Positions 4,262 to 36,703 of a DNA stretch of 36,703 nt are shown here, piece by piece. Each line of letters begins with the position of its first letter. Position 1 is the stretch's first letter. The stretch lies in contig JAGTWP010000002.1 of the NCBI GenBank assembly GCA_018260755.1, forward strand, positions 1-36,703. Direction: 5' to 3'. This DNA comes from Candidatus Altarchaeum sp. (GTDB lineage: Archaea > Altiarchaeota > Altiarchaeia > Altiarchaeales > Altiarchaeaceae). The translations under genes and the position numbers were made by a program. Under the pieces are notes generated by a model. The model made no database searches and was not told the DNA's origin. It worked only from the letters and a program-made list of their open reading frames with translations.

Positions 4262-5064
4262 ATGATTTTGGGCTTTTACGGGAATTCAAATTCAGGAAAG
4301 ACCACATTGATAGAGAAAATTTGCAGGAAATTAAAAAAGGAAAATTTAAAAATTGCAGTTATTAAGCATATTCCCCACAAAAATTTTTCCATTGATATCA
4401 AAACAAAAGATACGGGAAAATTTAAAAATTTGGGAGTTGATGTCGTTGCATTTTCTCCCGATGAGACGGCTTTTATACTTGACGGGATGAATTTTAGCGA
4501 TATGATTTCCAAATTAGAACATATAGACAGTTATGATGTCCTTTTGGTTGAAGGACTAAAAAAACAGAATATTCCGAAAATCAGAGTGGGGGATTGCCCA
4601 ATGGAAAGTAAGACAATAATAGATTATAAAGGTCCAAACGATTTAAAAACTATTTTAAAATGGATAAAAAACGAGATTCAAAAAGAGGAAAAGGAGTGGG
4701 AAGAAAAAAAGAAGATTTTGGTACGGATAATACGAGGGGAAAAGATAAGAACAACAAAGTTAAAAGGGACGAAGGTAAGAACGACAAAGTTAAAAGAGAG
4801 AGGGGTAAGAACGACAAAGTTAAAAGAGAGAGGGGTAAGAACGACAAAGTTAAAAGAGAAGAAAGTAAGAACGACAAAGTTAAAAGGGAAGAAGGTAAGA
4901 ACGACAAAGACAATAAAGACGAAGTAATTGTTATCGTGAATGGAAAAAGATTACCGATGGGAAATTTTCCGAAAAAGATAATAAAAGAGATTGTTGTAGC
5001 GATGGTATCTTCATTAAGAGGCGGAGAAGGAGTGGAAGAAATAGAGATAAATATTATAAAATAA
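4262..5064 (+). CDS. mobB: Molybdopterin-guanine dinucleotide biosynthesis protein B, split over two frames (4262..4927 and 4660..5064)
   Basis: P-loop GNSNSGKTT, IKH, KDT and LVEGLK in frame 1; the archaeal MobB-like C-terminal domain VIVNGKRLPMGNF..IIKEIVVAMVSSLRG lies in the -1 frame; next to moaC. Confidence 0.8.
4741..4909 (+). repeat. 30-nt coding tandem repeat, about 5.6 copies (core GGTAAGAACGACAAAGTTAAAAG)
   Basis: Units start at 4741, 4771, 4801, 4831, 4861 and 4891. Confidence 0.95.
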
Positions 5065-5600: not shown

Positions 5601-7205
5601 TCACATTCCTGGTGGCATACCTCCTCCTTTTTTTGTTGATGCGATTACATCATCAATTCTTAAAATCATATCAACTGCTTCCGTTGCAGATTTCAATGCC
5701 TGAATTTTTACCTTTAACGGCTCTACAACATTCTTTTCATACATATTGCCGGTTTTTCCTGCTACAACATCCACTCCGTAGTCCTTTTTCCCTTCGCTAT
5801 AATGCTTCCTTAAATTTACCAAGGTATCAATCACATCCATTCCTGCACTTTCCGCAAGTGTTTTCGGAATATCTTCTAATGCATCTGCAAATTTTTTTAC
5901 TGCTAACTGCTCTTTTCCGCTTTGTGTTACTGCAAATTTTCTTAATTCTTCTGCCGCCGCAATCTCAACAGCGCCACCTCCGGTTACAATCTTTTTCATC
6001 TCTAATGCACTTGAAAGAGAACCCAAACCGTCTTTTATAGCTCTTTCCAGTTCATCAATAACATGTTCTGTTCCGCCCCTTAATATAATTGTAGCCACCT
6101 TCGGATTTACGCAGTCCTTTACAAATATAAAATCATCCCCTGCCATTTTTGTCTGCTCAACAACACCCGCCTTTCCAAGTGAGTCGGAACTTAAATTTCT
6201 CATAGAATTTATAATCTTTGCATTTGTTGCCTTTGAAAGTTTTTTCATATCACTTTCCTTTACTCTCCTTGCAGCCATAATTCCGCTTTTTGCCAGATAA
6301 TACTGTGCCATATCATCAATTCCTTTCTGACAAAACACAACATTTGCACCCGTTTTCTTTACTGACTCAACCATGTCTTTTAACATTTTTTCTTCTTCAT
6401 CCAAAAATGCCTGCATTTGTGCCGGTGAGTCAATTTCTATCTCGCCCTTTGTTTCTGTTTTCTTTACTTCAATAGCAGCATTAAGAAGTAATATTTTTGC
6501 CTTTGTTACTTTTTTTGGCATTTGCGCATGCACAACTTCCTTTTCAATAACCATGCCTTTAACAATCTCCGAATCGCTTACTGATCCACCCTTTTTCTTT
6601 ATTATCTGTACATTGTCCTGATCAATCTTTAATTTTCCATCGGTAGTTTCTGCTATTGTTTTGATTGCTTCCACACATAATTTTCCTATATGTGACGGAT
6701 CTACATCAAGTGTTTTTCCTGCTACGGAAACGGATGCAATTTTAATTAATGCCTCATTGTCGTTTAAGTCAATATCCTGTGCATTATCTTCCAAATACTT
6801 TTGTATATGTTCCTGTGCTGCTCTATATCCGGATATTATAACTGACGGATGTATATCCTTTCCAAATAAGTCCATTGCCCCTTCCAATAATTTACCTGCA
6901 TATATCAAAGCGGTAGTTGTTCCGTCACCGACTTCTTTATCCTGTGTTTTTGCTATTTCAACCATTAGTTTTGCCGCCGGATGTTCAACCTTTAATTTAT
7001 CTACGATAGTTGCCCCGTCATTTGTTATGGTTATATCCCCCATATCATCCACAAGCATTTTATCCATTCCTTTAGGTCCTAATGTTGTCTTAACTGCGTC
7101 ACTTACGGCCTTTGCCGCAGATATATTTGCCCTCATTGCATTACCTCCCAAAAGTCGTTCATATCCCTCAGGTAATACCAAAACTTGCATTTGTTGTTGT
7201 GCCAT
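5601..7205 (-). CDS. ths: Thermosome subunit (group II chaperonin)
   Basis: TLGPKGMDKM, ITNDGATI, GDGTTT, ILRIDD motifs and GGGMPPGM tail. Confidence 0.97.
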   Translation of the reverse strand: MAQQQMQVLVLPEGYERLLGGNAMRANISAAKAVSDAVKTTLGPKGMDKMLVDDMGDITITNDGATIVDKLKVEHPAAKLMVEIAKTQDKEVGDGTTTALIYAGKLLEGAMDLFGKDIHPSVIISGYRAAQEHIQKYLEDNAQDIDLNDNEALIKIASVSVAGKTLDVDPSHIGKLCVEAIKTIAETTDGKLKIDQDNVQIIKKKGGSVSDSEIVKGMVIEKEVVHAQMPKKVTKAKILLLNAAIEVKKTETKGEIEIDSPAQMQAFLDEEEKMLKDMVESVKKTGANVVFCQKGIDDMAQYYLAKSGIMAARRVKESDMKKLSKATNAKIINSMRNLSSDSLGKAGVVEQTKMAGDDFIFVKDCVNPKVATIILRGGTEHVIDELERAIKDGLGSLSSALEMKKIVTGGGAVEIAAAEELRKFAVTQSGKEQLAVKKFADALEDIPKTLAESAGMDVIDTLVNLRKHYSEGKKDYGVDVVAGKTGNMYEKNVVEPLKVKIQALKSATEAVDMILRIDDVIASTKKGGGMPPGM

Positions 7206-7232
7206 TTTTACCTTTATTATTTTTTAAAAATT

Positions 7233-7380
7233 TATTTTATATTATCTTATTTTATTATCCGATTTTATTTTATTATCTTATTTTATTATCCGATTTTATT
7301 TTATTATCCTATTTTATTATCCGATTTTATTTTATTATCCTATTTTATTATCCGATTTTATTTTATTATCCTATTTTATT
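7233..7380. repeat. 31-nt tandem repeat ATTTTATTTTATTATCCTATTTTATTATCCG, about 4.7 copies, in the divergent ths/thiC intergenic region
   Basis: CCG anchors at 7259, 7290, 7321 and 7352 give a period of 31. Confidence 0.95.
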
Positions 7381-7529
7381 TTACTTTTTATTATTTGGCT
7401 TTATTATTTGACCTATTAATTATTTCTTTTTATTAATTACACTTATTTTATTAAATATTCTTGTTTTATTAATTAGTTTGAGTGTATATAAATTAAATTT
7501 TAAAGATTAAAAATAAATTAGAAATTTCA

Positions 7530-8816
7530 ATGGAAACAGCAATAAAAGAAACAATAGTTGAGCAGTGCAAAGCAGGAAAAATTCCCGAAGAAGCAAAATT
7601 TATCGCAAGTACCGAAAACAAAGATGTAAATTTCATAGTAAAAGAAATAGCCAGCGGAAGAATTGTTGTATTAAAAAGGTCACCGAAAAATTCAAAATTT
7701 GTCGGAATCGGACATGGATTAAGAACAAAATTAAATGTGAATCTCGGAACATCGTCTGTCGGAGAAATTTCAGAAGAGGTTGAAAAAGCAAAAATTGCAG
7801 AGAAATTTAAAATAGATGCAATCACTGAAATGTCTATGTGCGGAGATATAGATAAAATAAGAGAAAATATCTTTAAGTCCGCAACAATGCCGGTAATTAC
7901 CTGTCCGATATATCAGGTTGCGGCAGAAAGTTTTGGCAAAAATAATGGCTTTAAATTTAATGACGGAGAAATTTTAAGTATGATTGAAAGGCACCTAAAA
8001 GAAGGTGTTAGTGCAGTTGTTCTGCATTTATCAATGACAAAGGAGGCAATACAAAAATTAAAAAATACGAAAAGAATAGATAATATTGTTTCAAAAGGCG
8101 GGGCATTAACCGCTGCTTATATGATTGAAAATAATTGTGAAAATCCCTTTATTGAAAATTTTGCTCAAATTATGGAAATTTTGCATGCTTATGATGCAGC
8201 ATTAATTCTAGGAAATGTTATGCGTTCGGGAGGTGTTTGCGATGAAATGGATGAATTGCACATAGGGGAGATGAAAATGAACAGAAATTTTGCAAATAAG
8301 GCACACAGGCACGGAATTCAGGTTATAATTGAAGCGTTGGGCGGGCATATTGCGGCAAAAAATTTAATAAAATATACAAAATTTTACAGAAAGAATATAA
8401 AATTTCCGTTGTTTGCTTCGGGACCTGTGCCTATTGACAGTGCACTTGGATATGACCATATTGCGGCATCTCTCGGAGCAGGGATTATTGCGGGACACGG
8501 TGCTGACTTTTTATGCTGCATAACTCCTGCCGAACATTTGGCGTTGCCGACCGTTGAAGATGTGAAAGAGGGAATTATTACATTTAAAATTGTTGCTGAA
8601 TTTGCCGATGCGATGAAATATGGAATAAGCGAGAGAGATAGAGTAATGGATGAAGCAAGGGACTTACATGACTGGGAAAAGCAGTTTGGTCTGGCAATAG
8701 ATGGCGGGGAAAGAGCAAGACAAAAAGGCAAAAATTTAATTAAAGGAATAGGTTGTACAATGTGTGGGAGATATTGTGCGGTTGATGTGATGAAAAAATA
8801 TCTGAATAAGATTTAA
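7530..8816 (+). CDS. thiC: ThiC/Bza-family radical SAM enzyme (phosphomethylpyrimidine synthase-like), divergent
   Basis: GIGHGLRTKLNVNLGTS, GYDHI, TPAEHLALP and C-terminal CTMCGRYC cluster motif. Confidence 0.75.
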   Translation: METAIKETIVEQCKAGKIPEEAKFIASTENKDVNFIVKEIASGRIVVLKRSPKNSKFVGIGHGLRTKLNVNLGTSSVGEISEEVEKAKIAEKFKIDAITEMSMCGDIDKIRENIFKSATMPVITCPIYQVAAESFGKNNGFKFNDGEILSMIERHLKEGVSAVVLHLSMTKEAIQKLKNTKRIDNIVSKGGALTAAYMIENNCENPFIENFAQIMEILHAYDAALILGNVMRSGGVCDEMDELHIGEMKMNRNFANKAHRHGIQVIIEALGGHIAAKNLIKYTKFYRKNIKFPLFASGPVPIDSALGYDHIAASLGAGIIAGHGADFLCCITPAEHLALPTVEDVKEGIITFKIVAEFADAMKYGISERDRVMDEARDLHDWEKQFGLAIDGGERARQKGKNLIKGIGCTMCGRYCAVDVMKKYLNKI

Positions 8817-8842
8817 TAAGATTTTGTGTTGTGGGAACATTT

Positions 8843-9503
8843 TTAACTGGATAATAATTTAAATAATTCTTTCCATTTCTTTATATGTTCTTTCTTAATC
8901 TCTGTCGTTTTTGAGAACTCAATTTATAAGTTTTTTGTATAATTATCAATAAATTTACTATGGTCATCCAATAATTAAGTAATACTTTAATGAAGATATT
9001 AACCCATTCACTATAACTTCGCAACCATGCTTATTTCTTATATCCTCAATCAATTCTAAAATTTTAGTAACTATTCAGAGGGTATTTTCAAAATGAAATT
9101 TTGAAATACTAAAAATTATAAATTTTTAATCTTTAAAAATCTGCAAGATTTTTAAATACTGAAAATATTCAGATTTTCAATCTTACAAAATGCAAAGCAT
9201 TTTGTAAATCTCCGAACGAAGTGAGGTGACAAAATTTTACTGAAAATTTATAAATAAATATTCAATCTTAAAAAATATTTCAAATATTTTTTAATACATG
9301 CGATTTTCAAACTTGTTTGAAAATACACGAACGAAGTCCGCTCACTTTCGTTCGTGTATTTTTCAAACGAAATCGTTTGAAAAATGAGCGTAAAATTTCA
9401 AAAAATTTACCATTAATTTTTTGGGTGGCTGAATAGTTACAAATTTTATTTTCTTCACCCTGCATAATATTTGGTTCTAATGTTGTTAGCAAATAATATC
9501 TTT
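8843..9503 (-). pseudogene. 3' remnant of a gene, tentatively restriction-endonuclease-like; interrupted by MITE-A and truncated at MITE-B
   Basis: Removing 9067-9440 plus one TSD joins RYYLLTTLEPNIMQGEENKI to LELIEDIRNKHGCEVIVNGLISSLKYYL in frame; a further frameshift and a stop follow; family assignment is from recall only. Confidence 0.55.
9067..9440. mobile_element. MITE-A: 374-bp non-autonomous element, 12-bp perfect TIR GTAACTATTCAG, 8-bp TSD AAATTTTA
   Basis: GTAACTATTCAG at 9067-9078 and CTGAATAGTTAC at 9429-9440; AAATTTTA at 9059-9066 and 9441-9448; excision restores a reading frame. Confidence 0.9.
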
Positions 9504-9767
9504 GTATTTGTTTAGCTAATTGGATTTTACTGAAAACTACAGGTTTTCAATCTTTAAAAATTTATGAAATTTTTAAATTACCTCGTCATATTTGATTTTG
9601 GGTAGTGATAAACATGTAATGCCGAAGGATATTTTCAAAACCCAGAGTTTTGAAAATCTCCGAGCAACAGCGAGGTGATTTTTAAATTTATTTAAAAATC
9701 TCCGAATGAAATGAGGTGATTTTTTCACACTTTTCACACTTAATTTTTTAAGCAGCTAAACAAATAC
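9504..9767. mobile_element. MITE-B copy 1: 264 bp, 14-bp perfect TIR GTATTTGTTTAGCT, no TSD
   Basis: GTATTTGTTTAGCT at 9504-9517 and AGCTAAACAAATAC at 9754-9767; nearly identical to 31141-31338 apart from two internal indels. Confidence 0.9.
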
Positions 9768-9921
9768 CTATTTTTTTATTTTTATTTTTTTTATTTTATT
9801 TTTATCCTTTGATTTTATTATGATTTTTTTCTAATCTTTCTGATACCTGTATTTTTCTAATATTTATGTTTTTAATCTAATTTTTAAGCCATATTTGTAA
9901 AAATTTTGTATATGTGCAAAA

Positions 9922-10863
9922 ATGAAATTTAAGAATATTGCGGTATTAGGGAACAACACATTCGGTGATGTGTTAGGAAAAAAGGGAACGGAAAGCGATA
10001 TAACTCTTTACAGTTATAAGGAAGAATCACAGGCATTAAGTTTTGTAGTTCCGACAGAATATCCGGGAAAAGTTCAGCCAATGGTATATGCGATAAATAT
10101 GACAGATGCAGCGTTGGTCAAGGTAGATGCAATAAGCAGAACTTTGGGAGAAATAATAATAGCATTGGAATGTGCCAATATAAAAAAGGGCTATATCATA
10201 ATGGGGGAAAATTTAATCAAAGAGCAAATTTTGCCACTCATTAAAGGCACAGTACTTCAGAATTATAAATTTATAGATAATGACAGAATCACAATAATAG
10301 AGACATTATCCAACGAAGACATTTCTTCAACCTCCGGCATTACAAAAGTTCCGATTGATCACTTTTTTGATGTCAAAAGTGTCGGAACAGTAGTGTTAGG
10401 AACAGCTTATGGAAAGGTCAGGAAATTTGATGACTTTATTATGTATCCGACAGATAAAAAAGTAACTGTAAAATCAATTCAGATTTATGATAAGGATGAA
10501 GACGACGCGGAAAACGGTTCAAGAGTGGGCTTAAATTTAAAGGGAGTAAGTGTGGCAGAACTTGAAAGAGGATATGTATTGGCAAAAGAAGGAACAATGA
10601 AGGTCGCTAAGGAAATTAATGTTAAATTTAAGGTTCAGAAGTTTTGGAAATATCCTGTTAGTACAGGTGGAGAATATGTTTTTGTTTGCGGGCTTCAGCA
10701 ATTACGGGCAACCATTAAGGAAGGAGGACTAAATTCCGGTGAGGAAGGAACAATAAAGATAGGTCTTGACTGGAAACTTGCTTATGTACCAGGGGACAGA
10801 ATATGGCTTTTAAGGCCTGATTTACCGGATAACAGGGTTGTCGGATGCGGAGAAATAATTTAA
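9922..10863 (+). CDS. Archaeal SelB-like/EF-Tu-domain protein with a degenerate G domain (aSelBL type)
   Basis: LGKKGTESDIT N-terminus, IDHFFDVKSVGTVVLG, VKSIQ, GSRVGLNLKG and ERGYVL (EF domain II); no GxxxxGKT P-loop. Confidence 0.8.
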   Translation: MKFKNIAVLGNNTFGDVLGKKGTESDITLYSYKEESQALSFVVPTEYPGKVQPMVYAINMTDAALVKVDAISRTLGEIIIALECANIKKGYIIMGENLIKEQILPLIKGTVLQNYKFIDNDRITIIETLSNEDISSTSGITKVPIDHFFDVKSVGTVVLGTAYGKVRKFDDFIMYPTDKKVTVKSIQIYDKDEDDAENGSRVGLNLKGVSVAELERGYVLAKEGTMKVAKEINVKFKVQKFWKYPVSTGGEYVFVCGLQQLRATIKEGGLNSGEEGTIKIGLDWKLAYVPGDRIWLLRPDLPDNRVVGCGEII

Positions 10864-10907
10864 TAAATAAATTTTAATCAATAAATAAATTTTAATCAAT
10901 ATAAAAA

Positions 10908-12572
10908 ATGTCAAAAAAAATTAATGGAATAAATCTGAACTTGGGCGTTTTTGGGATTTTAGCAGTTGTTTTAATGTTGGCTTTGAGTGGATGTGTCGAA
11001 CAAAAAAAAGATGTAACTTTAAAGATGGCAGATGAAATGAGTTCTCCTGTAAATTTCTCACCGATAGTTTTCTATGCAAAATTTAATGAAAGTGTAAATG
11101 CGAGTGTAGATTTTTACATAGATGCTCAATTTATAGGCAATGCAAATTCAAATGGCAGCAATGTTTTTATGGAATACTACGGAAATTTAACTGCCGGAGA
11201 ATACAAAGTAAATGCAATCTTTCCCGGAAATGCTCAATTTAATAATGCATCTGCATCCAGCATACTTAAAATTCATAAACGCAATACTATTTTGGATGTT
11301 GGTTTTGAGCCGGAAGACAGAATTTATTTCAAGGACTCATTAAATGTGAGTGCTCATCTTACTATTGGTAGCACAGACAGCAAAGAAGAATGTGCGAATA
11401 AAGAAATTTTGCTTTATGTAGGCAACAAATTTTTGGGTAAAAATTTAACAAACGATGAATGTTTTGCTTACTGGACACTTAGCAATTTGGATGTCGGGGA
11501 GTTAAATATAAAAGCCGAATATAAAGGAAATGAAATATATGAAGATGCAAACGCAGCTAAAAGTATTACTATAATATCCAAGATTCCCGTTAAAATTTTT
11601 GCAAATAGTACGGAGGTTGAACTTAAGGATAAAGATGTAACAATATCTGCGGATATGAAAGATTATTTGGGTAGGAATGTTCCGAACAGGGTATTAAAAC
11701 TAATATCCGAAGGAAGGTTAATTGCTAATTTAACTGCCGAACACAATATATTCGTTTTAAACATTTCAGAATTTGGATTAGGAAGTCATCGCTTACAGGT
11801 TGTTTTTGACGGGACAGAAATTTATGAAAATGCAAGCAATGATGTATTTGTGGAAATAATAAACAAATACAATATTTCAGGTGTTGAAGTAAAGGCAGAA
11901 ATTCCGCTTGAACAAATGTTCAATAAAAAAATATCTGTCTATGCGGATGGTTCAAATGCAAGTGAGTATTGTGCGTATGAATTTGAATCAATTGCAGATC
12001 AGAAAAATGGCTACCGCATTCAGATTCAAGAAGGAAATAAAGACAGCATATTTTTGGGGAAAAATTTCGGAATAATTACAGTAAAACAAGGTTATGGGAT
12101 GCTTTCCTGCCATGTATTTTTGTGCATGGATAAGAATATTAACTGCTCAATTCCGGATGTTTTTGAGGCAATCGGAAAACTTGAAAATTTAAGCATTGCA
12201 TTAGATAAAGATGTGAGTGGAAAGCCATTGGTTGTCTATAATGAAATCAGGGGAACATTAGGTTACATTCAGGCGTATTTCGTTCAAAACAGGAGACAAA
12301 TTTATATAAAGCCATATTTGATAAATGGCAGCAAATGTGAATTATCTCCGACGAGAACTGCCTATCAGAATTTAACCGTAAAAGAGGTGAATGACTGCAA
12401 TTTCAACGGAATATTCATAAGAAATGCAGATAAGCGGTTTATGGGCGTGAAGGATGGAAAAATTTTATTAGAAGGTGATGAAAATGGTTTGTTTGCCGAA
12501 GAAACAATTTTAAAGTGGCTCATTGCACCGGGATATGCTTATGATTTGAGAATCAAAAATCAAAGTGAATAA
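10908..12572 (+). CDS. Secreted lipoprotein with tandem Ig-like (Big) repeats
   Basis: Signal peptide with lipobox LSGC; three repeats ending in (F/Y)xGN/GTxxY/FxxA; many N-x-S/T sequons. Confidence 0.7.
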   Translation: MSKKINGINLNLGVFGILAVVLMLALSGCVEQKKDVTLKMADEMSSPVNFSPIVFYAKFNESVNASVDFYIDAQFIGNANSNGSNVFMEYYGNLTAGEYKVNAIFPGNAQFNNASASSILKIHKRNTILDVGFEPEDRIYFKDSLNVSAHLTIGSTDSKEECANKEILLYVGNKFLGKNLTNDECFAYWTLSNLDVGELNIKAEYKGNEIYEDANAAKSITIISKIPVKIFANSTEVELKDKDVTISADMKDYLGRNVPNRVLKLISEGRLIANLTAEHNIFVLNISEFGLGSHRLQVVFDGTEIYENASNDVFVEIINKYNISGVEVKAEIPLEQMFNKKISVYADGSNASEYCAYEFESIADQKNGYRIQIQEGNKDSIFLGKNFGIITVKQGYGMLSCHVFLCMDKNINCSIPDVFEAIGKLENLSIALDKDVSGKPLVVYNEIRGTLGYIQAYFVQNRRQIYIKPYLINGSKCELSPTRTAYQNLTVKEVNDCNFNGIFIRNADKRFMGVKDGKILLEGDENGLFAEETILKWLIAPGYAYDLRIKNQSE

Positions 12573-13069: not shown

Positions 13070-13681
13070 ATGGCACAGGAAAAAGCAGTTAAAAAAGAAG
13101 GGAACAAAAAAACAGCAGAAGAAATAAAAAAGGAAACAAAGGCAACCAAAGAGGTAATCTCTGAAGATAAAAGCAAGAAAAAAACTACAAGTGCAAAGAA
13201 AACAAAGACAAAATCAGAGGAAAAAATAGAAGAGATTAAAGAAGAAGCAAAGCATGAGGAAAATGTAATCCCTGAAATCAAAGAAGAAGCAAAGCATGAG
13301 GAAAATGTAATCCCTGAAATCAAAGAAGAAGCAAAGCAGGAAATAAAACCAGGGGAAAAAGTAACAAAAGTAACCGAAGAAAAAACTACCAAAACCAAAG
13401 AAGAAGGTGCAAAGGTAGAAAAACCGGAAGAAAAAAAGACACTCGGAAAGGTTTATACTATTCCATTAAGTGATGTATATAATCAACCGTGGAGTAAAAG
13501 AGCAAGAAAAGCAACAAGGATGGTGAGGGAATTTTTGCAAAAGCATACCAAGAAAGAAGTAAAAATAGCAGGTGATGTTAATGAAGCAATATGGGCTCGC
13601 GGAATGAAACACCCTCCGAGAAAAATAAGAGTTAATGTTGAAATTGAAGATAATCTTGCAACTGCAAGGTTATTAAAGTAA
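13070..13681 (+). CDS. rpl31e: 50S ribosomal protein L31e with a ~120-aa Lys/Glu-rich N-terminal extension
   Basis: C-terminal VYTIPL..KRARKA...VNEAIWARG..HPPRKIRV L31e domain; located upstream of eIF6. Confidence 0.9.
   Translation: MAQEKAVKKEGNKKTAEEIKKETKATKEVISEDKSKKKTTSAKKTKTKSEEKIEEIKEEAKHEENVIPEIKEEAKHEENVIPEIKEEAKQEIKPGEKVTKVTEEKTTKTKEEGAKVEKPEEKKTLGKVYTIPLSDVYNQPWSKRARKATRMVREFLQKHTKKEVKIAGDVNEAIWARGMKHPPRKIRVNVEIEDNLATARLLK
13238..13337 (+). repeat. 42-nt in-frame tandem duplication (KEEAKHEENVIPEI x2.4) in rpl31e
   Basis: AAAGAAGAAGCAAAGCATGAGGAAAATGTAATCCCTGAAATC is repeated exactly. Confidence 0.9.
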
Positions 13682-18621: not shown

Positions 18622-18640
18622 ATTTTAAATTTTTTAAGTC

Positions 18641-18781
18641 ATTTTCAAATCGCAGAGATTTGAAAATCTCCGAGCAACAGCGAGGTGATTTTCAAAACCC
18701 CGAGTTTTGAAAATCTCCGAGCAACAGCGAGGTGATTTTCAAAACCCCGAGTTTTGAAAATCTCCGAGCAACAGCGAGGTG
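18641..18781. repeat. Three tandem 47-bp palindromic units ATTTTCAAAAC-CCCGA-GTTTTGAAAAT-CTCCGAGCAACAGCGAGGTG
   Basis: Units at 18641, 18688 and 18735; the same unit occurs inside MITE-B at about 9631 and about 31243. Confidence 0.95.
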
Positions 18782-18818
18782 ATTTTTTTAAAAATTTTAA
18801 CCCGTTAATTTTGTAAAA

Positions 18819-30956: not shown

Positions 30957-31458
30957 GGCGGATCAAGAGATATACCTGAATTTTGCATAAAGAAGACGCC
31001 TATGATAACCTCCTCTATCAGGTTGTCTATAATAACAAATTCAGGATTATTTACAGAAAAGCCACCTATTTTTATTTCTTTAAATCTGGCTTTTTCTCAT
31101 TTTACTTTACTGCCATCTGCCAAAATGGGATTAAAAATTAGTATTTGTTTAGATAATTGGATTTTACTGAAAACTACAGGTTTTCAATCTTTAAAAATTT
31201 ATGAAATTTTTAAATTACCTCGTCATATTTGATTTTATAGTTATTTTCAAAACCCAGAGTTTTGAAAATCTCCGAGCAACAGCGAGGTGATTTTTTCACA
31301 CTTTTCACACTTAATTTTTTAAGTAGCAAAACAAATACAAAAATTATTCTTTCAGAATGATAATACATTATATTCACACCTTCACCGCTTTTAAATTGTC
31401 TTCTGATATAATTCCTCCCTGCTCCACTGTCAAATAGTGCCAGAAGATTTTGGCTCAT
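30944..31458 (-). pseudogene. Clan AA (retropepsin-like) aspartyl protease disrupted by MITE-B and an in-frame TGA
   Basis: Removing 31141-31338 plus one TSD gives MSQNLLALFDSGAGRNYI...ERIIFNPILADGSKVK*EKARFKEIKIGGFSVNNPEFVIIDNLIEEVIIGVFFMQNSGISLDPPNEK* (DSG, LADG and IIG motifs). Confidence 0.85.
31141..31338. mobile_element. MITE-B copy 2: 198 bp, imperfect 14-bp TIR, 8-bp TSD AAAAATTA
   Basis: GTATTTGTTTAGAT...AGCAAAACAAATAC; AAAAATTA at 31133-31140 and 31339-31346. Confidence 0.92.
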
Positions 31459-36568: not shown

Positions 36569-36593
36569 TTTACTTATTTTATTTGTATTGTTT

Positions 36594-36703
36594 TACAATT
36601 AAAATGTATGTTTTATTAGTATTACTCTACAATTAAAATGTATGTTTTATTAGTATTACTCTACAATTAAAATGTATGTTTTATTAGTATTACTCTACAA
36701 TTA
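36594..36703. repeat. 34-nt perfect tandem repeat TACAATTAAAATGTATGTTTTATTAGTATTACTC, at least 3.2 copies, runs off the window end
   Basis: Units at 36594, 36628, 36662 and 36696; no spacers. Confidence 0.95.

Follow-up and report, generated by a model that had tools for sequence, protein, structure and literature searches.

Linker-bounded hairpin modules in Candidatus Altiarchaeum are gained and lost as discrete cassettes

What are the closely packed hairpins in a spacer of a genome of the groundwater archaeon Candidatus Altiarchaeum (Ca. Altiarchaeum), and how do they multiply? They occupy positions 9082-9385 (304 nt, 77% A+T) of a window of 36,703 nt, which comprises bases 1-36703 of contig C13 in a 1.32-Mb metagenome bin (G000; 78 contigs, 31.9% G+C, 85% complete), and they form the interior of MITE-A, a 374-bp MITE (miniature inverted-repeat transposable element). 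A sequence-only reading of the window had described them as an archaeal mosaic comparable to the repetitive extragenic palindromes (REPs) and bacterial interspersed mosaic elements (BIMEs) of bacteria, and had proposed that an enzyme builds or amplifies them module by module. The window was analyzed here together with the remainder of G000 and three further genomes of the genus, G001, G002, and G003 (65, 87, and 87% complete, respectively).

Ten perfect hairpins with a stem of at least 7 and a loop of at most 7 were found in 9082-9385, six of them with a stem of at least 9, and together they cover 208 of the 304 nt. In 1000 dinucleotide shuffles of the same sequence, the corresponding values were 1.1±1.2 hairpins, 0.13±0.36 hairpins with a stem of at least 9, and 17.8±17.0 nt covered, and none of the shuffles equaled any of the observed values. 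If a hairpin with one mismatch (9241-9264), the box hairpin with its G.A pairs (9212-9226), a 16-bp stem (9320-9362), and the hairpin at 9399-9423 are counted as well, MITE-A contains about 12 hairpins, close to the eleven or so back-to-back hairpins of the sequence-only reading. In addition, the whole of MITE-A folds as a single strand with -78.9 kcal/mol (z = -10.8) for the plus strand and -79.7 kcal/mol (z = -12.1) for the minus strand. Across G000, 215 hairpins with stems of at least 11 were counted, compared with 10-15 in three block-wise dinucleotide shuffles.

An abundance of palindromes in a spacer of this base composition could be a product of chance, or of misassembly in a fragmented bin in which contig ends often fall within these repeats. 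The counts and the coverage, which no shuffle of 9082-9385 reached, and the genome-wide excess of long stems argue against chance. The same modules are present in the three other genomes of the genus and in three named public bins, and the module order at 9099-9184 was found again, with 0 differences, in a contig (record 26) of run X4, an independent DNA data set from a different study. We therefore regard chance or artefact as an extremely improbable explanation.

The hairpins are joined by linkers of fixed length and sequence. When hairpins were detected blind to linker sequence in the 1.32-Mb genome and adjacent non-overlapping pairs with a gap of 0-6 nt were collected, the gap was exactly 3 nt in 112 of 160 pairs, and 103 of these 112 linkers were ATC/GAT (70) or TAC/GTA (33). 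After strand normalization, every array reads TAC-S-ATC-L, repeated head to tail, where S is a short hairpin of 18-24 nt with the fixed foot TGAAA/TTTCA and L is a longer hairpin of 21-27 nt with the foot TT(A/T)(A/C)AAAA and arms TT../..AA. Often, ATC and a box, TCCGA-N-GAGGTGA, come after the array-terminal L. As read from the sequences, the pairing of this box gives a small stem of C-G, C-G, G.A, A.G, N-N, and N-N with a tandem G.A mismatch. The inner pairs of the box covary among variants (GC/GC, AC/GT, and AT/AT; 53 boxes, both strands of G000). Linker regularity thus exceeds that of shuffled AT-rich DNA, as hairpin density does, in keeping with what the sequence-only reading had expected.

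Two kinds of cassette were distinguished on this basis, a two-hairpin unit of 41-57 nt, 5'-TAC-(S: TGAAA..TTTCA)-ATC-(L: TT(A/T)(A/C)AAAA..)-3', and a hairpin+box module of 42-48 nt, which consists of an L-type hairpin, ATC, and the box. G000 contains 94 S modules flanked by TAC..ATC and boxes of two types (53 and 50), and its longest array comprises 15 hairpins with a period of 53 in identical 53-nt units (contig C53, 16704-17094). Within the window, the predicted order of TAC, TGAAAAT..ATTTTCA, ATC, and a long hairpin was present exactly as claimed, and its recurrence, placed by that reading at about 9238, 9528, and 31165, was found at 9107-9156, 9157-9210, 9528-9580, and 31165-31217, as well as at 9238-9297 with one stem mismatch.

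The stem sequences differ between the modules while their pairing is kept, as had also been claimed. A covariance model of the S-L cassette, built from 24 sequences, gave 240 matches in 100 sources, the best 150 of which were aligned to yield 106 distinct cassettes. In this alignment, which was fitted to the model and therefore leans towards structure, 95.7% of the cells stand in standard pairs, compared with 86.8±0.4 after partner shuffling. Both sides change in 11 of the 20 pairs, the number of double-change cells is 195 compared with 59±6 in shuffles, and the covariation score is 0.267 compared with 0.102. None of 500 shuffles matched the alignment in any of five covariation measures, and sliding the 3' partner by one column gave pairing of 70% and 61%.

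Independently of the alignment, the stem continues for at least 2 bp past the foot in 51 of 69 unique S sequences (284 instances), compared with 9% (maximum 25%) after shuffling of the interior. Stem mismatches amount to 20 in 842 positions (92 unique units). The column entropy is about 0-0.4 bits in the linkers and feet, about 1.0-1.4 bits in the upper stems, with matched values on both arms, and 1.2-1.9 bits in the loops. The commonest S stem occurs with 10 different triloops, which are connected by single changes.

The hairpin interior resides in a carrier that is mobile in its own right. MITE-A (9067-9440) has terminal inverted repeats (TIRs), and its target-site duplication is matched by an empty site elsewhere: the site in G003 holds a single AAATTTTA, and a 2176-nt contig of run X4 joins 9058 directly to 9441. 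G000 contains 120 hits to the TIR (at most one mismatch) and 34 complete copies of 89-374 bp, with a modal length of 244 bp, the copy in the window being the longest. The sequence-only reading had recognized the hairpin interior of this MITE correctly, but had missed that the carrier is an ordinary TIR element with an 8-bp target-site duplication that moves whole.

A second element, MITE-B, has 14-bp ends that differ from those of MITE-A. Its 8-bp duplications are clean in other copies and not at 9504-9767, suggesting a deletion or a recombination at that end of the window copy. The 8-bp target duplications of MITE-A and MITE-B indicate that a DDE-type transposase with an 8-bp cut stagger moves both of them whole, in trans. 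No parent element with TIR-A or TIR-B ends was found at the DDE_Tnp_1, TnpB, and IS110 loci fetched from the four incomplete bins.

Related elements were noted beside these carriers. In G003, a 100-bp MITE-A-like element with the variant ends GTAACTACTCAC / GTGAGTAGTTAC lies just after thiC (L013, 1915-2014) and is absent from that position in the window, so that the two species carry different insertions less than 150 bp apart. Two 361-bp elements in G000 with MITE-A ends (contig C4, 1435-1795; contig C8, 5733-6093; L142) have no interior hairpins and hold an open reading frame (ORF) of 55 aa; a 56%-identical stretch of it lies in a 119-aa frame of G001, and its matches elsewhere are only short frames. 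Two further G000 elements (contig C48, 12029-12290; contig C45, 8491-8764; L143 and L144) have MITE-B-like ends, with a coding-looking interior in place of the hairpins, which in L143 lies within a 144-aa ORF; these TIR-B-ended elements were set aside as unrelated to the hairpins.

Inside the carriers, cassettes come and go as whole units. The MITE-A copies form a size series of 101, 158, 199, 244, 292, and 374 bp, the steps of which are whole modules. The step from 101 to 158 bp adds 57 nt (S-ATC-L-TAC after ..TTTAC), that to 199 bp adds a 41-nt hairpin+box module, that to 244 bp adds another hairpin+box module of 45 nt, and that to 292 bp adds a 48-nt hairpin+box module of another variant, placed backwards inside a box. 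This last module corresponds to 9338-9385 in the window; MITE-A copies of another population (run X4) lack it and read GAGCGT straight after 9337, and the same variant stands alone in G001 (L008). The resident cassette 3 of MITE-A is missing from the eight 101-bp copies.

For the left-end hairpin+box module of the window MITE-A, two S-L cassettes (9107-9207) separate the hairpin from its ATC-box, unlike in copy C32 4419, where hairpin and box are adjacent. An independent split between hairpin and ATC-box by a cassette block was seen in a MITE-B copy with a different box (C71 28110). Two other MITE-B copies lack exactly the 50-nt TAC-S-ATC-L, with GGATTT directly followed by TTACCT.

Outside the carriers, a 41-nt cassette stands in unique DNA of G000, just upstream of a small gene (contig C47). 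The orthologous site in G003 is empty and reads AAATTTAT followed directly by CTTAAAATGG, and the cassette is also missing in G001 and G002. The hairpin+box modules at 18636-18782 of the window are missing from the orthologous spacer in G001 and G002, which is there only a few bases long. These results indicate that the two-hairpin cassette of 41-57 nt is a discrete unit of gain and loss in four contexts, one of which is unique DNA with an empty orthologous site.

Hairpins are also replaced or recombined as units. At an orthologous S-L-box locus (G000 C53 and G003 C20), the flanks are about 90% identical and the L hairpin is another variant in both arms. S and L variants are freely combined, as in the S variant TGAAATC.tttt.GATTTCA, before which at least 8 different L hairpins occur and after which at least 5 different continuations do. 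The cassette always abuts TAC, TTAC, ATC, or TAT, with exact boundaries that are ambiguous through the repeated linker. A target duplication of 3 or 4 nt was considered for the cassette and rejected: MITE-A (TAC..TAC) agrees with it, whereas neither MITE-B nor the hairpin+box context nor the unique site does.

The system is confined to the genus Ca. Altiarchaeum. In the DNA search, its elements were found in all four genomes of the genus, with one weak hit among 37 other genomes of the class. The cassette model gave 81 to at least 95 matches in each of the four genomes, and a match in 2 of 57 other class genomes, single and marginal in each. In a pattern scan of 185,579 species genomes, 72 of the 80 matches listed came from three Altarchaeum/Altiarchaeales bins and 8 were single matches in unrelated bins. 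In IMG/VR, the cassette pattern gave two single hits of minimal length and the hairpin+box pattern gave none, and a viral link was rejected on this outcome.

With respect to genes, none of the 94 S modules of G000 lies inside an ORF of at least 120 aa. As a separate observation, 7 of the 53 box1 matches do lie inside such ORFs, including single hairpin+box modules in a coding-looking context at contigs C30 (~21377), C47 (~14599, minus strand), and C71 (~37570). These may be in-frame insertions, as reported for Rickettsia palindromic elements (RPEs) and the MJRE elements of Methanocaldococcus jannaschii.

The sequence-only reading had pointed to transposases of the HUH type as the agents behind such hairpins. 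By this explanation, the elements would be REP/BIME-like and would be moved as single-stranded hairpins by an HUH Y1 transposase, either a REP-associated tyrosine transposase (RAYT) or the TnpA of the IS200/IS605 insertion sequences (ISs). Several features of the cassettes suit it, namely the small hairpins, the conserved short flanks, the absence of cassette-level inverted ends or of a consistent duplication, the head-to-tail arrays, and the fixed abutting trinucleotide. IS200/IS605-type tnpB is also present in the genus, with 9 matches in G003 and 1 in G001. The Y1_Tnp family (PF01797), however, gave no match in any of the four genomes, whereas the same search was positive in 6 of 14 control genomes. 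About 100 cassettes are carried by each of G000 and G002, both of which are without tnpB. Furthermore, the five-copy tnpB element of G003 (L152-L156; about 1345 bp, a TnpB-like protein of 409-414 aa, copies 94-96% identical) has its own 14-bp inverted ends, AGTGATTTCGCTTT / AAAGCGAAATCACT, and contains no S, L, or box module.

Other enzyme families gave no better candidate. IS110 is present in one of the four genomes of the genus, and Y2_Tnp (IS91) gave no match in the four, a result that is uninformative as the control genomes were silent too. The sequence-only reading had also expected an HUH or other nuclease gene flanked by the modules; none of the five module-flanked ORFs of G000 looks like one. 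The 315-aa ORF among these five had no Pfam match.

Nor do the cassettes fit the definitions of REPs and BIMEs, for which the available text of two papers gives a GTAG/CGTC tag on one palindrome end, evenly spaced REPs of alternating orientation within BIMEs, and a RAYT gene that REPs usually flank (PMC2817692, PMC3733652). The flanks in Altiarchaeum are TAC/ATC and the feet TGAAA/TTTCA and TT../..AA, with no GTAG or CGTC. The arrays consist of two-hairpin units placed head to tail and not in alternating orientation. Moreover, the four genomes have no RAYT/Y1 gene, the stems are rich in A+T, the elements reside in an archaeon, and the cassettes also lie inside MITEs with TIRs and target-site duplications. 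Because no Y1/RAYT gene was found in the four genomes and the ends of the TnpB element are unrelated to the modules, the HUH reading is unsupported, and we consider it very unlikely.

A likeness remains at the level of organization. As in the REP/BIME systems described in the same text (PMC2817692, PMC3733652), these are short, high-copy, intergenic palindromes that form mosaics with short fixed linkers, with conserved flanks, covarying stems, and the character of a replicating-element population. They also correspond to the size and copy criterion for REPs (~20-40 nt, more than 100 copies, mostly extragenic), with S hairpins of 18-24 nt, L hairpins of 21-27 nt, and 94 flanked S modules in G000. 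The designation of the locus as an archaeal BIME/REP-like mosaic therefore holds in the sense that hairpin modules with fixed linkers form a mosaic dispersed over the genome of an archaeal host (the thermosome gene in the window marks it as archaeal), and does not hold for membership in the REP/BIME-RAYT group. The cassettes fall outside the published definitions, and the resemblance is one of logic.

The explanation that we favor, with about even confidence, is that these are genus-specific, selfish, modular palindromic cassettes whose propagation depends on the hairpin and the linker, and which ride DDE-type MITEs and also spread unit by unit via a putative factor. As passive cargo, the cassettes would travel with TIR elements (MITE-A, MITE-B, and variants), which a DDE-type transposase would move in trans. 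The cassettes would also spread as single units through precise insertion beside a TAC/ATC-type trinucleotide. Tandem duplication could then build the arrays of up to 15 hairpins, and whole hairpins could be exchanged between copies.

The near-invariant feet and linkers, the covarying upper stems, and the drifting loops suggest that the target of recognition is a folded single strand. A trans-acting factor, presumably a dedicated one other than Y1 or RAYT, would recognize this strand at the hairpin base and linker during copying, and only lineages that keep the hairpin would go on multiplying. As a more specific and tentative proposal, the activity may be a hairpin-specific recombination or transposition of the non-Y1-HUH kind, which reads the hairpin foot and the 3-nt WWC linker and inserts, copies, and swaps cassettes of 41-57 nt at such junctions.

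A number of observations weigh against this explanation. Both strands of MITE-A fold equally well, and only the box, with its G.A pairs, is strand-asymmetric. Among the stem mismatches, G.T (3) is not commoner than A.C/C.A (2), so that the stems show no strand-specific single-strand state, although these counts are too few to tell. The boundaries of the cassette are ambiguous because the linker is repeated, and neither a consistent target duplication nor a target word emerged from the contexts compared. No enzyme was identified: at least one cassette-rich genome lacks TnpB, the same holds for IS110 and for DDE_Tnp_1, and the five G000 ORFs flanked by modules do not look nuclease-like from their first residues. 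In addition, all four genomes are incomplete metagenome bins, and the array lengths may therefore be misassembled.

Further observations of the same bearing point to an alternative that needs no dedicated machinery. The cassettes would then be minisatellite-like two-hairpin repeats within MITEs, altered by slippage, gene conversion, and unequal crossing-over, and template switching at quasi-palindromes would remake the arms without selection. The identical tandem units of the 15-hairpin array indicate slippage. Copies C32 and C65 carry a chimeric hairpin, which is best read as the outcome of a deletion in a window-type array, between two copies of the repeat ATTTTG, and 15 of the 20 stem mismatches fall at the L-subtype position, suggesting that arms of different hairpins were joined by recombination. 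For the replaced L hairpin, gene conversion would suffice, as its flanks are homologous. The insertion at the unique site in C47 has 7 of 8 bases in common with the usual 5' context of the cassette (..AAATTTAC), so microhomology-driven template switching is possible there. According to the available text of one study, hairpins that change in a coordinated way are reported to arise and to be maintained by template switching (PMC8794818). The failure of the searches for Y1_Tnp, TnpB, Y2_Tnp, and IS110 to yield a candidate enzyme also fits this alternative. The part of the sequence-only reading that had modules built or amplified one by one stands, in that they are gained, lost, and exchanged as units, whereas the enzyme that would build them is only putative, since the tandem duplication, gene conversion, and hairpin recombination seen here need no dedicated one.

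In contrast, four points are difficult to reconcile with an enzyme-free origin. Conservation is far stronger in the unpaired linkers and the stem feet than in the loops, a contrast that neither neutral slippage nor template switching predicts. The cassette is precise at the linker boundaries in four unrelated contexts, including unique DNA. Template switching of the arms should often invert the loops, whereas the 10 loop variants of the commonest S stem include only one reverse-complement pair (gta, 14 copies; tac, 1 copy). Finally, the arrays occur in one genus only, and equally AT-rich members of its class have no model-detectable arrays. We regard the enzyme-free account as less likely than the favored explanation, but as its main and a serious rival.

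A function for the host, with selection on RNA hairpins (terminators, stabilizers, or processed small RNAs) or on arrays of binding sites for a chromatin or regulatory protein, could also account for conserved structure. Three metatranscriptome runs and one DNA run were compared with 7600-11000 of the window. Contigs from the three metatranscriptome libraries (for example run X12, records 11 and 12) contain pieces of MITE-A and MITE-B at high summed depth, which for repeats sums over all copies. Such contigs do not establish transcription, since strand, transcript ends, and level cannot be read from them and the libraries may include DNA. Positions 8854-8967 and most of 9766-9879 are without cover by the RNA libraries, which is not usable as evidence. 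The elements lie almost exclusively between genes, and the box end GAGGTGA has what we take to be a likeness to a Shine-Dalgarno sequence.

Against such a function, the orientation of the elements is unbiased relative to co-oriented flanking genes (sense/antisense, 19/23 for S, 11/15 for box1, and 15/9 for box2). Their presence is polymorphic at orthologous sites, both between species and between populations, and one copy interrupts a gene remnant. Rfam 15 gave no match in the window at gathering scores and only sub-threshold matches in 8800-9900 (E of at least 0.23). We therefore consider a host function unlikely. A CRISPR array was considered and rejected, since the hairpins lie 3 nt apart without spacers and the CRISPR repeat of the genome is unrelated. 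The CRISPR arrays of G000, at contigs C44 (10672-14093) and C60 (6453-6715), have a repeat that contains AATCGCACTATGTAGTATGGAA and is unrelated to the hairpin modules.

Other known systems share parts of this anatomy. The pneumococcal BOX element (boxA-boxB(n)-boxC) has inverted-repeat ends and a variable number of tandem hairpin modules of about 45 bp, and its size classes differ by whole modules. Similarly, the MITE ends in Altiarchaeum enclose variable internal hairpin modules, with size classes that differ by whole modules. Unlike those of BOX, the Altiarchaeum modules are common to MITE families with unrelated ends, occur also alone in unique DNA and nested, and follow a strict linker grammar with covariation. 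Haloarchaeal PATEs, derivatives of IS200-IS605 (IS1341-type) elements, are palindrome-associated and non-coding, and tnpB-only elements occur in the same genomes. In the present genus, the tnpB ends are unrelated to the cassettes (five aligned G003 copies), and there is no tnpB in the cassette-rich G000 and G002.

Among small palindromic repeats, MJRE1-3 (Suyama, Lathe & Bork 2005; cited in PMC2229807) come from an archaeon, M. jannaschii, and some such repeats lie inside genes. According to Di Nocera et al., the CGTC-tagged repeats, among them the Rickettsia elements, apparently have no dedicated transposase. Like the MJRE and Rickettsia elements, compared here by description only, the Altiarchaeum modules are small palindromic repeats without a known transposase. 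We know of no linker grammar for MJRE, and no record from Methanocaldococcus was among the matches listed in the cassette pattern scan.

The abundance of mobile elements in these archaea has been documented. According to the available text of a MITE census, MITE density among archaea peaks at 146 per Mb, in Ca. Altiarchaeum hamiconexum (PMC11602168), and according to that of another study, Altiarchaeota have the highest median IS content (PMC13343696). The available census text describes neither internal hairpin modules and linkers nor unit-wise dynamics (PMC11602168). No description of the hairpin modules was found in the literature as available; the sequence supplements of the census may contain these MITEs.

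The coordinates of the features are collected in Table 1. The MITEs lie in a 1.1-kb gap between thiC (7530-8816) and an EF-like gene (9922-10863). Within this gap, a minus-strand gene has left its 3' remnant in two segments, 8852-9066 and about 9441-9503; the gene is intact as a 391-aa ORF without a Pfam family in the sister species G003 (L013, 2023-3198, minus strand). The remnant is split by MITE-A and cut off at MITE-B.

Table 1. Positions of cassettes, carriers, and associated features in the window
Feature	Position	Strand	Remark
Thermosome gene	5601-7205		
Left copy of the 8-bp target-site duplication AAATTTTA of MITE-A	9059..9066		
MITE-A, 374 bp, 12-bp perfect TIRs GTAACTATTCAG / CTGAATAGTTAC	9067..9440	+	
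L-type hairpin TTTCAAAAT.gaa.ATTTTGAAA	9086..9106	+	hairpin of a hairpin+box module, separated from its box at 9212-9229 by two inserted cassettes
Cassette 1: TAC - S TAAAAATT.ata.AATTTTTA - ATC - L TTTAAAAATCT.gca.AGATTTTTAAA	9107..9156	+	model R1, 51.6 bits
Cassette 2: TAC - S TGAAAAT.attcag.ATTTTCA - ATC - L TTACAAAATGC.aaa.GCATTTTGTAA	9157..9207	+	model R1, 62.6 bits (9157-9210)
ATC linker and box TCCGAACGAAGTGAGGTGA	9208..9229	+	folds C-G, C-G, G.A, A.G, A-T, C-G around a GAA loop
Cassette 3 (MITE-A resident): TAC - S TGAAAATTTAT.aa.ATAAATATTCA (one mismatch) - ATC - L TTAAAAAATATTT.c.AAATATTTTTTAA - TAC	9238..9297	+	
Hairpin+box module: ATTTTCAAAC.tt.GTTTGAAAAT and first half of box ACACGAACGAAGT	9303..9337	+	
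48-nt hairpin+box module, another variant, reverse inside the box of the previous module	9338..9385	-	makes the 16-bp stem 9320-9335 / 9347-9362
Second half (GAGCGT) of the interrupted box	9386..9391	+	
Subterminal hairpin CAAAAAATT.taccatt.AATTTTTTG	9399..9423	+	in all MITE-A size classes
Right copy of the 8-bp target-site duplication AAATTTTA	9441..9448		
MITE-B, 264 bp, inverted ends GTATTTGTTTAGCT / AGCTAAACAAATAC	9504..9767	+	S-L cassette 9529-9578; hairpin+box modules 9630-9678 and 9679-9719
Three tandem 47-nt hairpin+box modules between two co-oriented genes	18636..18782	+	
Second MITE-B copy, 198 bp	31141..31338	+	S-L cassette as in the first copy, 31165-31217

Tandem repeats of other kinds were also noted in the window. 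Between the thermosome gene and thiC, a repeat at 7201-7410 has alternating 13/18-nt spacing and a 31-nt period in about 10 copies, with units such as ATTATCCGATTTTATTTTATTATCCT, and a 15/18-nt repeat at 4-144 resembles it. Two A/G-rich, in-frame-looking repeats, with a 30-nt unit in 6 copies at 4716-4949 and a 42-nt unit in 4 copies at 13121-13357, probably code for repetitive protein segments. A 34-nt repeat at 36577-36703, in at least 3 copies, continues past the end of the window.

REPs and BIMEs have been studied for forty years, and the bacterial ones were explained only once the RAYT transposases had been found. For CGTC-tagged, Rickettsia-type, and archaeal palindromic elements, we know of no mover. 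Altiarchaeum offers a clean, rule-bound palindromic mosaic with invariant 3-nt joints, covarying stems, and unit-wise insertion, in genomes without a Y1 transposase. The question of what copies transposase-less palindromic elements thereby becomes directly testable, since the proposed recognition unit is defined at the level of single bases and both filled and empty sites occur naturally. Because Ca. Altiarchaeum dominates some subsurface communities, population metagenomes and metatranscriptomes already exist.

The cassettes also break assemblies, as seen from the many bin contigs that end in them, and they disrupt or separate genes, so that they are relevant to the assembly and annotation of the genomes of abundant subsurface archaea. 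If the proposed hairpin-specific activity exists, it would be an archaeal, RAYT-independent counterpart of the REP/BIME systems, with a grammar that could be reconstituted in vitro.

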